Part shown: positions 50,835 through 54,146 of the stretch, one piece after another | Layout of the letters: every line of letters starts with the position of its first letter | Numbering within the stretch: position 1 is the first letter of the stretch | Assembly: GCF_055900595.2 (NCBI RefSeq) | Contig: NZ_CM148325.1 | DNA length: 64,000 bases | Reading direction: 5' to 3' (one strand) | Notes under the pieces: generated by a model | Databases searched by the model: none | What the model saw: the letters and a program-made list of their open reading frames with translations, nothing else | What the model was told of the DNA's origin: nothing | Translations under genes and position numbers: made by a program

Positions 50835-52094
50835 TTATGAGCGCTTCATCATTTCGAAGAAATCGTCATTGGTCTTGGTCATCGCCAGTTTATTAATGAG
50901 GAACTCCATGGCATCGATTTCGCCCATCGGGTGAATGATTTTGCGCAGGATCCACATTTTCTGCAGCTCTTCCTGAGTAGTGAGCAGCTCTTCTTTACGG
51001 GTACCGGAACGGTTGTAGTCGATTGCCGGGAAGACGCGTTTTTCAGCGATCTTACGAGAGAGGTGCAGTTCCATGTTGCCTGTACCTTTAAACTCTTCGT
51101 AGATAACTTCGTCCATCTTGGAACCGGTATCGATAAGCGCGGTAGCGATGATGGTCAGGCTGCCGCCCTCTTCCACATTACGCGCCGCACCGAAGAAGCG
51201 TTTCGGGCGATGCAGGGCGTTGGCATCCACACCACCGGTCAGCACTTTACCTGACGCCGGAACAACGGTGTTGTAAGCACGCGCCAAACGAGTGATGGAG
51301 TCGAGCAGAATGATAACGTCTTTCTTGTGCTCAACCAGGCGTTTCGCCTTCTCGATCACCATTTCCGCAACCTGAACGTGGCGAGATGCGGGTTCGTCAA
51401 AGGTGGAAGCAACAACTTCACCTTTTACCAGACGCTGCATCTCGGTGACTTCTTCCGGACGTTCGTCAATCAGCAGAACCATCAGCACACAATCCGGGTG
51501 GTTGTAAGCAATGCTCTGAGCAATGTTCTGCAGCAGCATGGTTTTACCGGCTTTCGGCGGTGCCACAATCAGACCACGCTGACCACGACCGATAGGTGAT
51601 GCCAGATCCAGTACGCGAGCGGTTAAATCTTCAGTAGAACCGTTACCACGTTCCATGCGCAGACGAGAGTTTGCGTGCAGCGGGGTTAAGTTCTCAAAGA
51701 GGATTTTGTTGCGGGCGTTTTCAGGTTTGTCGAAGTTAACTTCGTTAACTTTCAGCAGCGCAAAATAGCGTTCACCTTCTTTCGGCGGGCGAATCTTACC
51801 AGAGATGGTATCACCAGTGCGGAGGTTGAAACGGCGGATTTGGCTAGGAGAAACGTAGATGTCATCAGGACCGGCGAGGTAGGAGCTGTCTGCGGAACGG
51901 AGGAAACCAAATCCATCCTGCAATATCTCCAGTACGCCATCACCAAAGATATCTTCGCCACTCTTTGCGTGCTGCTTCAGGATGGCAAAAATAATGTCCT
52001 GCTTACGCATACGAGCCAGGTTTTCCAGCCCCATATTTTCGCCGAGAGTGATCAGCTCAGAAACCGGCGTATTCTTTAATTCGGTAAGATTCAT
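50835..52094 (-). CDS. rho: Transcription termination factor Rho
   Basis: Track ORF (443 aa) trimmed to the ATG at 52092-52094, giving [44 protein letters not shown]... (419 aa) with a Walker A motif (APPKAGKT). Confidence 0.97.
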
Positions 52095-52178
52095 AGTGGT
52101 GTGAGTTCTTAAACTTGGGGTAAATCTCGAACTTAATGTTGTGAATGGTATGGCAGGATCATCCATGCCTGTTTACGG

Positions 52179-52280
52179 TCATCGACTCATGTCTTTTCGC
52201 TGCCTGGTCACAGGAGAGTACGCAGAACTGAAACGACAAGACGGATTGAGTGACGAGCCAGAAATCTGTTCACTTCGCAT
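52179..52280 (-). CDS. rhoL: rho operon leader peptide
   Basis: 33-codon minus-strand ORF MRSEQISGSSLNPSCRFSSAYSPVTRQRKDMSR between trxA and rho. Too short for the track; found by direct translation. Confidence 0.85.
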   Translation of the reverse strand: MRSEQISGSSLNPSCRFSSAYSPVTRQRKDMSR

Positions 52281-52420
52281 TTAAGATAAAACGGGAAGCG
52301 TTGGAAATTACAAGATTCAAACTTAATAAGGTATGTTTAATACGAAGTCAACACTAAGTTAGCATGACTCACGCCGGGCGTCCAGTTTTTAGCGACAGGG
52401 CACCCGAACATGAAATTCCC

Positions 52421-52750
52421 TTACGCCAGGTTAGCGTCGAGGAACTCTTTCAACTGACCTTTAGACAGTGCGCCCACTTTGGTTGCCGCCACTTCACCGT
52501 TTTTGAACAGCAGCAGAGTCGGGATACCACGGATGCCATATTTCGGCGCAGTGCCAGGGTTTTGATCGATGTTCAGTTTTGCAACGGTCAGTTTGCCCTG
52601 ATATTCGTCAGCGATTTCATCCAGAATCGGGGCGATCATTTTGCACGGACCGCACCACTCTGCCCAGAAATCAACGAGGATCGCCCCGTCCGCTTTGAGT
52701 ACATCCGTGTCAAAACTGTCGTCAGTCAGGTGAATAATTTTATCGCTCAT
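52421..52750 (-). CDS. trxA: Thioredoxin 1
   Basis: Track ORF trimmed to the ATG at 52748-52750, giving [50 protein letters not shown]... (109 aa, WCGPC active site). Confidence 0.97.
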
Positions 52751-52880
52751 ATATAACTCCACAGGAATAAGCCTGGCGTGTTGGTTTCGTTGTTGGTGTA
52801 ACATTAACCAACTAAAGGTTGACTTTATTTCACCGGATACGCTTTCGTAAAGCAATAGTAAGCTGATATTCTACCACACT

Positions 52881-54146
52881 ATGAGCAAAACACATTTAAC
52901 AGAACAGAAGTTTTCCGACTTCGCCCTGCATCCGAAGGTTGTAGAAGCCCTTGAAAAAAAAGGGTTTCATAACTGTACGCCCATTCAGGCACTGGCCCTT
53001 CCGCTGACGCTGGCGGGTCGTGACGTAGCCGGGCAGGCGCAAACCGGTACCGGGAAAACGATGGCGTTTCTTACGTCAACGTTTCATTATCTTCTCTCTC
53101 ATCCCGCGATTGCCGATCGCAAGGTGAATCAGCCGCGTGCCTTAATTATGGCACCGACGCGTGAACTTGCCGTGCAGATCCACGCCGATGCGGAGCCACT
53201 GGCGCAAGCTACCGGCCTGAAGCTGGGTCTGGCTTACGGTGGTGATGGCTACGACAAACAGCTGAAAGTGCTGGAAAGCGGCGTTGACATACTGATTGGC
53301 ACCACGGGTCGTTTAATTGACTACGCCAAGCAGAACCACATTAACCTCGGTGCCATTCAGGTGGTAGTACTGGACGAAGCCGATCGCATGTACGATCTGG
53401 GCTTTATTAAAGATATCCGCTGGCTGTTCCGCCGTATGCCGCCTGCAAACCAGCGCCTCAACATGCTGTTCTCCGCCACGCTTTCGTACCGGGTACGCGA
53501 ACTGGCATTCGAGCAGATGAACAATGCCGAATATATTGAAGTGGAACCGGAACAGAAAACGGGCCACCGTATAAAAGAAGAGCTTTTCTACCCTTCTAAC
53601 GAAGAAAAAATGCGTTTGCTGCAAACGCTGATTGAAGAAGAATGGCCAGACCGAGCGATTATTTTCGCCAACACCAAACATCGTTGTGAAGAGATCTGGG
53701 GCCACCTGGCAGCAGATGGTCATCGTGTCGGTTTGTTGACAGGCGATGTCGCGCAGAAAAAACGTCTGCGTATCCTTGATGAATTTACCCGTGGCGATCT
53801 GGATATTCTGGTTGCCACCGACGTTGCCGCGCGTGGTTTGCATATTCCGGCAGTGACGCACGTCTTTAACTACGATTTACCCGATGACTGTGAAGATTAC
53901 GTTCACCGTATTGGTCGTACAGGTCGCGCAGGAGCAAGCGGTCACTCTATCAGCCTGGCCTGTGAAGAGTATGCATTGAATTTGCCTGCTATTGAGACCT
54001 ATATTGGTCACTCAATTCCGGTAAGCAAATACAATCCGGACGCATTGATGACCGATCTGCCAAAACCGCTGCGCCTCACACGCCCGCGTACAGGTAATGG
54101 TCCGCGTCGTACTGGCGCTCCGCGTAATCGTCGTCGTTCAGGTTAA
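52881..54146 (+). CDS. rhlB: ATP-dependent RNA helicase RhlB (degradosome component)
   Basis: 421-aa DEAD-box ORF (AQTGTGKT Walker A; DEAD in VVLDEADRM; C-terminal RGR-rich tail). Divergent from trxA. Confidence 0.95.

Follow-up and report, generated by a model that had tools for sequence, protein, structure and literature searches.

rhoL in the leader of the Escherichia coli rho gene: the annotated ORF, probably lineage-restricted, over a conserved structured RNA

Between trxA and rho of Escherichia coli, a short ORF, rhoL, is annotated as that of a leader peptide. Taken literally, this name makes the peptide, or its translation, the driver of rho attenuation. The question raised by this locus is whether the conserved unit in the leader is the ORF or the RNA in which it lies, and the comparative data described below argue in favor of the RNA. 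The window (the whole stretch of DNA that was analyzed, 64,000 nucleotides) carries the trxA-rho spacer at 52095-52420 (326 nt), with the trxA stop codon at 52423-52421 and the rho ATG at 52094. It had been claimed in an earlier note, made from the letters of the DNA alone, that a 33-codon ORF at 52179-52280 on the minus strand lies in this spacer within the rho leader, and that it is the known rhoL, associated with autoregulatory Rho-dependent attenuation. The features discussed below are collected in Table 1.

Table 1. Features of the trxA-rho region in the window, in the order of transcription
Feature	Position	Strand	Basis and remarks
trxA coding sequence	52421-52750	-	ORF list; annotated in aligned E. 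coli records; upstream of rho, same strand
Putative rho promoter	52356-52385	-	TGGACG (52384-52379), 17-nt spacer, extended -10 TGcTAACTT (52364-52356)
Putative transcription start	52349	-	G, 7 nt downstream of the putative -10; 255-nt leader
rho leader (5′-UTR apart from rhoL)	52095-52349	-	Sequence; conservation profile
rhoL	52179-52280	-	33-codon ORF; range includes the stop codon; identical to b3782 and to the PGAP rhoL
Predicted imperfect hairpin (three helices, 24 pairs, 83 nt)	52177-52259	-	RNAalifold on alignment A2; E. coli MFE and centroid folds
C-rich, G-poor 3′ part of the leader, candidate rut site	52095-52168	-	C/G composition; nhmmer conservation
rho coding sequence, 419 codons	50835-52094	-	ORF list; annotation in E. 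coli records
Published Rho-dependent termination zone, early rho ORF	52007-52044	-	Adams et al. 2021 supplements

The listing of ORFs of at least 20 codons contains this ORF, which starts with ATG, runs from 52280 to 52179 on the minus strand, and translates to MRSEQISGSSLNPSCRFSSAYSPVTRQRKDMSR followed by a stop codon. An in-frame TAA (52283-52281) adjoins the ATG on its 5′ side, so that the length of the ORF is exactly 33 codons. The peptide is the same as that of rhoL of E. coli K-12 MG1655 (b3782, NC_000913 3966231-3966332; 33 residues), and the PGAP rhoL of one aligned E. coli record (L001, locus 1721-1822) maps to 52280-52179 of the window. Alignment to the annotated rhoL had been set beforehand as the test of identity; no other frame or position emerged, the position, frame and peptide all being the same as those of b3782, and the identity proposed in the earlier note stands. 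The window ORF scored 95.2 bits against the NCBIfam equivalog model NF007433 (RhoL; cut-off, 85 bits), covering model positions 1-33 of 33, and it belongs to this family by score as well as by position, strand and frame. The window and K-12 differ by one base in 401 nt; this base is outside rhoL, upstream of the promoter region. The TrxA proteins of the two are 100% identical. When a 501-nt query around rhoL was used, 5425 of the 5426 complete E. coli genomes gave matches, mostly with at least 99% identity, and "rhoL: rho operon leader peptide RhoL" was annotated between trxA and rho in 50 of 50 among the matches listed. The match was absent from the one remaining genome, and a few genomes have the leader in two copies; one such copy sits on a plasmid record. 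The window comes from an E. coli chromosome, and its 33-codon ORF corresponds to the annotated rhoL, at the same locus in another strain. The presence of rhoL in the rho leader is already known and is a textbook annotation.

The comparative material was obtained as follows. Species-representative genomes were scanned once with a degenerate pattern for the first 11 rho codons, and the resulting 120 rho loci span Enterobacterales, Aeromonadales and their relatives. In nearly all of these loci, trxA is directly upstream of rho, with spacers of 147-580 nt. The trxA-rho spacers of 29 Enterobacteriaceae species, one genome per species, compose the alignment referred to as A2 hereafter.

A scan of 51900-52950 for promoters and terminators returned no promoter and no terminator-like site, and the rho leader matches no leader family in Rfam. 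Two blocks in the spacer are nevertheless conspicuous in A2: no variation is seen among the 29 species at CTGGACGC (52385-52378) or at the TGCTA..TTA positions (within 52364-52355), and the bases adjacent to them are nearly invariant. The conservation of this promoter-like block, together with that of the leader's 5′ end, extends across families of Enterobacterales (nhmmer with the A2 profile). We place the putative rho promoter at 52385-52356 on the basis of the sequence. The 1980s papers on rho are said to give a 255-nt leader, and the putative start agrees with this length. A look-alike promoter, TTGACT-17-TATTAA (52351-52323), was rejected, since conservation does not extend to its -10 part and a 255-nt leader would place it within the transcript. 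Several other observations concern the trxA side of the spacer. The Term-seq 3′ ends of the trxA transcript at K-12 3966142 and 3966145 (Adams et al. 2021, PMC7815308) correspond to window positions 52369 and 52366 on the minus strand, and both lie in the putative rho promoter, between its -35 and -10 elements. An inverted repeat (GGCGTCCAG...CTGGACGCC) follows trxA in most genera (window 52366-52410), and its 3′ arm is formed by the invariant CTGGACGCC. With the trxA 3′ ends lying in the putative promoter and the invariant bases forming an arm of this repeat, the same bases may therefore serve both as the trxA terminator stem and as the rho -35. In Pseudescherichia vulneris and Escherichia sp. 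ESNIH1 (L028 and L058), one or two extra tandem GTCAGTTTGAAYC-like units are present in the 5′ part of the leader (A2 columns 125-170). The Rfam family RF02773 (TrxA 5′ UTR thermometer) matches 52721-52820 on the minus strand with 78.8 bits (gathering score, 58), a region that takes in the trxA start and the sequence immediately before it.

The link between this leader and autoregulatory, Rho-dependent attenuation, also drawn in the earlier note, is backed by the literature. Rho controls its own synthesis through attenuation in the rho leader (PMC6582626, citing Barik 1985 and Matsumoto 1986; PMC11599450). In the rho R66S mutant, the RNA polymerase occupancy within rho, normalized to the rhoL region, rises 12-fold (10.1101/682021). 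The coordinates of Adams et al. (2021) were converted to those of the window as 52094 + 3966417 - K-12 coordinate. A Term-seq 3′ end at rho +50 (K-12 3966467, window 52044) has a Rho score of 7.07 and is marked "Yes", and the bicyclomycin-sensitive termination region peaks at K-12 3966504 (window 52007, rho +87; score 7.82, p = 1.3e-215; PMC7815308). Another 3′ end, found in two of the listed sample sets, is located inside rhoL (K-12 3966322, window 52189, nt 91 of rhoL; PMC7815308).

The composition of the leader was examined for a place where Rho could load. The C/G ratio in 60-nt windows peaks at 3.6 over 52153-52094; C exceeds G over 52348-52200 (C/G 1.2-2.2) and does so most strongly over 52168-52049, while YC dinucleotides are densest in 52273-52199, a stretch overlapped by rhoL. 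The 3′ part of the leader at 52168-52095 has the properties expected of a rut-like sequence: it is C-rich, G-poor and weakly structured, and it precedes the termination zone, with the mapped Rho-dependent 3′ ends a short distance downstream. In addition, the last about 80 nt of the leader before the rho ATG compose its most widely conserved module across Enterobacterales (nhmmer HMM positions 260-347). Since 52168-52095 is located between the rhoL stop codon and the rho start, ribosomes translating rhoL would not cover it. We consider this part the best candidate for the rut site. Two observations were made at the rho start itself. The ATG at 52166 shares the frame of rho, and no stop codon intervenes, so that the mechanically called ORF (50835..52166) is 24 codons longer than rho; a 2-nt indel right before the rho ATG breaks this frame in other genera (A2), and a real N-terminal extension of Rho is therefore unlikely. 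The rho start codon is not preceded by an obvious Shine-Dalgarno sequence (AAGAACUCACACCACUAUG, 52095-52115), yet this stretch is among the most conserved of the leader.

Next, the occurrence of the ORF in related species is considered. Among the 28 other Enterobacteriaceae species in A2, an ATG with an open frame is retained only in E. albertii. At the position of the rhoL ATG, Citrobacter and Enterobacter have GCG; in Enterobacter sp. R1, an ATG occurs there by chance, and codon 4 of its frame is a stop. In 18 of the 28 species, the ORF contains indels whose net length is not divisible by 3, and in-frame stops occur inside the aligned codons 2-5 in many of them. The mean identities to the E. 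coli base at codon positions 1, 2 and 3 are, respectively, 0.79, 0.78 and 0.80, and rhoL therefore has no coding periodicity. Three assemblies found through an identical TrxA, probably of Salmonella, carry a 418-nt spacer with CAC at the position of the E. coli ATG, and the gene called there at the rhoL location begins at ATC. In E. coli and E. albertii, the ORF was intact in the sequences read (for E. coli, the window, K-12 and the most divergent match), with the C-terminus differing slightly within Escherichia (KDMSR, KDMR and KDMS).

The scores against the NCBIfam RhoL model follow the same pattern. The cut-off of 85 bits was passed only by the E. coli versions, namely, the window translation (95.2 bits) and that of a divergent E. 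coli strain (87.9 bits); E. albertii was just under it (84.4 bits), and the homologous translations of other genera were in the range of 29-70 bits (Citrobacter-like translation, 70.2; 418-nt-spacer assemblies, 64.3; Enterobacter frame, 29). It was also found that some public assemblies of other genera carry gene calls homologous to rhoL that begin with ATC or ATA, and not with ATG, GTG or TTG (within 2331-2748 in L126, L128 and L133; 2461-2580 in L129), and that these calls score below the cut-off. Spacers of the L126 type carry about 90 extra nt immediately after trxA. A protein-coding signature, in the sense of a start, a frame and a periodicity kept in relatives, was not found for rhoL. 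rhoL shows no coding signature outside Escherichia, and these data argue that the conserved unit is the RNA of the leader.

The nucleotides inside rhoL (CTCAATCCGTCTTGTCGTTTCAGTTCTGCGT..GACCAGRCAGCG..ACAGACATGAG) are highly conserved in Enterobacteriaceae, whatever the frame. This conserved sequence forms part of one long imperfect hairpin in both the RNAalifold structure and the E. coli fold; the hairpin extends from rhoL codon 8 to two bases beyond the rhoL stop codon and thus includes most of rhoL. Across the 29 species, 95.7% of the cells of this hairpin are paired, as compared with 32-53% in slid-partner controls; this contrast is a generous one, because prediction and testing of the hairpin relied on one and the same alignment. 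Compensatory changes were found at six pairs, as compared with 2.2 +/- 1.1 in column shuffles, and none of the 500 shuffles reached six; this count lends the predicted hairpin some independent support. For the entire E. coli leader, the predicted folding is not exceptionally stable (z = -1.3). When the A2 profile was run against the 120 upstream regions (nhmmer), the rhoL segment could be recognized in Enterobacteriaceae and, in part, in Erwiniaceae, but in no other family. The published 3′ end at 52189 maps to the 3′ arm of helix 2 (pair 52237-52189), a position that would fit the trimming of the terminated leader RNA back to a stable stem.

With considerable confidence, we regard rhoL as the annotated ORF in an autoregulatory leader of about 255 nt, and as an upstream ORF that is probably lineage-restricted and lies over a conserved structured RNA. 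In the mechanism that we propose, Rho protein would load on the C-rich leader RNA during its synthesis, most of this RNA being untranslated. As published, Rho stops transcription at the leader end and in the first about 50-90 nt of the rho coding sequence, and high Rho activity thereby lowers rho expression, a negative feedback. According to published ribosome profiling, rhoL is translated at some level in E. coli, and, judging from the comparative data, it would overlie the conserved structured RNA element by happenstance. The sequence of the RhoL peptide is unlikely to matter. A narrower version of this reading, which we hold tentatively and to which we give somewhat less than an even chance, is that rhoL is young and restricted to Escherichia, having arisen on an older RNA element, that the hairpin at 52259-52177 is the real working part, and that "leader peptide" is a misnomer. 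The hairpin could then gate the access of Rho or of small RNAs to the CU-rich arm, or it could stabilize the attenuated leader fragment that has its end at 52189, and this fragment might titrate Rho. Within Escherichia, where the ORF is retained and translated, rhoL may still have a function. Upstream ORFs can act by translation alone and turn over between lineages, and hence the non-conservation of the peptide is compatible with a regulatory role.

Such a role is the substance of the alternative in which rhoL is a true regulatory upstream ORF: translating ribosomes would melt the hairpin, cover its CU-rich 5′ arm and alter the loading of Rho, so that rho would be coupled to translation capacity or to Mg2+. 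In one study (10.1101/2024.09.13.612970), retapamulin ribosome profiling reports initiation at rhoL in E. coli, and rhoL is one of about 19 small ORFs that are up at least 3-fold in low Mg2+ with at least 5 reads per million; its authors left rhoL aside, since perturbing rhoL would perturb Rho. The overlap of rhoL with both the YC-richest stretch (52273-52199) and the hairpin, as well as the intactness of the ORF in the E. coli sequences read and in E. albertii, also accords with regulation by its translation. However, the start codon and the frame are lost outside Escherichia in the sample, where the leader and the autoregulation are expected to be shared. A Shine-Dalgarno-like sequence was not found upstream of the rhoL ATG (CCCGUUUUAUCUUAAAUG), and the AUG falls in a predicted small stem (CUUC...GAAG, 52300-52271); the pairs of this stem are kept in about 20 of the 29 species without variation and are therefore uninformative in either direction. 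Tetracycline caused no significant change in the RNA polymerase occupancy within rho (10.1101/682021), and the mapped termination follows an 84-nt untranslated C-rich gap, which is beyond the reach of ribosomes on rhoL. We found no experiment in the literature that ties the translation of rhoL or its peptide to the control of attenuation. A regulatory upstream ORF is thus considered unlikely.

It is also conceivable that rhoL is a chance ORF without meaningful translation and that its annotation is a historical artifact. When the 326-nt spacer was shuffled with its dinucleotides preserved, a closed sense-strand ATG ORF of at least 33 codons appeared in 1889 of the 5000 shuffles (38%). The length of the rhoL ORF is by itself weak evidence of a gene; rhoL is recognizable because it is identical to the annotated gene, and not because of its length. 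The lack of a Shine-Dalgarno sequence and of coding periodicity, together with the poor conservation of the ORF, points in the same direction. Against this stand the reads at the rhoL start site, which number at least 5 per million in the ribosome profiling study (10.1101/2024.09.13.612970), and we judge an untranslated chance ORF to be distinctly improbable.

The literature on rhoL mutants bears on the last alternative. Transposon and deletion mutants of rhoL show fitness and mild RpoS-reporter phenotypes (PMC11188689), an IS2 insertion in rhoL lowers the Rho levels (PMC11829017), and a multicopy rhoL fragment was recovered in a terminator read-through screen (PMC9765468). A role of the RhoL peptide as a small protein working in trans, for instance in the general stress response, would agree with the fitness and RpoS-reporter phenotypes and with the translation reported by ribosome profiling (10.1101/2024.09.13.612970), but it is hardly credible, since the mutants have also lost the rho leader or carry it interrupted and the IS2 insertion lowers Rho, so that the phenotypes are explained by altered Rho, and since the peptide shows no codon-level constraint, is not conserved beyond Escherichia and has a C-terminus that is variable even within this genus.

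The locus can be compared with known systems. With the rhoL/rho leader of E. coli K-12, it shares the peptide, the position and the frame, and nothing of substance is different. Like rhoL and rho, the pairs mgtL-mgtA, corL-corA, tnaC-tnaA and toiL-topAI carry a short ORF within a long leader that is subject to premature termination by Rho. In the mgtL, corL, tnaC and toiL systems, the access of Rho is gated by the upstream ORF, through its translation or the stalling of ribosomes. For toiL-topAI, this gating is described in 10.1101/682021, where the Rho dependence of toiL-topAI and that of rho were measured side by side. The rhoL case differs from these systems: its ORF lacks conservation, no significant effect of tetracycline was seen on the RNA polymerase occupancy within rho, and no such gating experiment was found in the literature. 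Among the amino acid operon-type leaders, trpL, hisL, thrL, pheL and ivbL resemble rhoL in being short ORFs upstream of a regulated gene, and rhoL carries the "leader peptide" designation of EcoCyc (PMC7815308). However, neither of the two marks of a trpL-type attenuator, an intrinsic terminator with an antiterminator and a run of regulatory codons, was found at rhoL: the scan of 51900-52950 gave no intrinsic terminator, no terminator/antiterminator pair or Rfam leader match was seen, and the eight Ser residues of MRSEQISGSSLNPSCRFSSAYSPVTRQRKDMSR are scattered, tandem regulatory codons being absent. Termination in the rho leader is Rho-dependent, unlike that at trpL-type attenuators.

A further likeness concerns small RNAs. 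In rpoS (DsrA, ArcZ and RprA) and in Salmonella rho (SraL), a long leader is subject to premature Rho termination that is counteracted by a small RNA, and the rho leader is comparable in form. According to reviews, including PMC6582626, SraL of Salmonella pairs with the rho 5′-UTR and counteracts premature termination. With E. coli RyjA/SraL (K-12), the best windowed duplexes with the leader had energies of -21.8 kcal/mol at leader +13 to +25 and -17.7 kcal/mol at 52243-52220, which are no better than those of the shuffled controls (-20.4 +/- 2.1 kcal/mol). Full-length RNAduplex calculations for SraL and the leader gave long duplexes that were likewise no better than those of shuffles.

Rho sets the level of transcription termination genome-wide, and the throttling of rho itself therefore matters. 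For annotators, and for those who work with rhoL mutants, these results are a caution that rhoL is not to be treated as a conserved leader peptide. Given that rhoL has no coding signature outside Escherichia while the RNA of the leader is conserved, the phenotypes of rhoL insertions and deletions are best read as those of altered rho expression rather than of a missing peptide.
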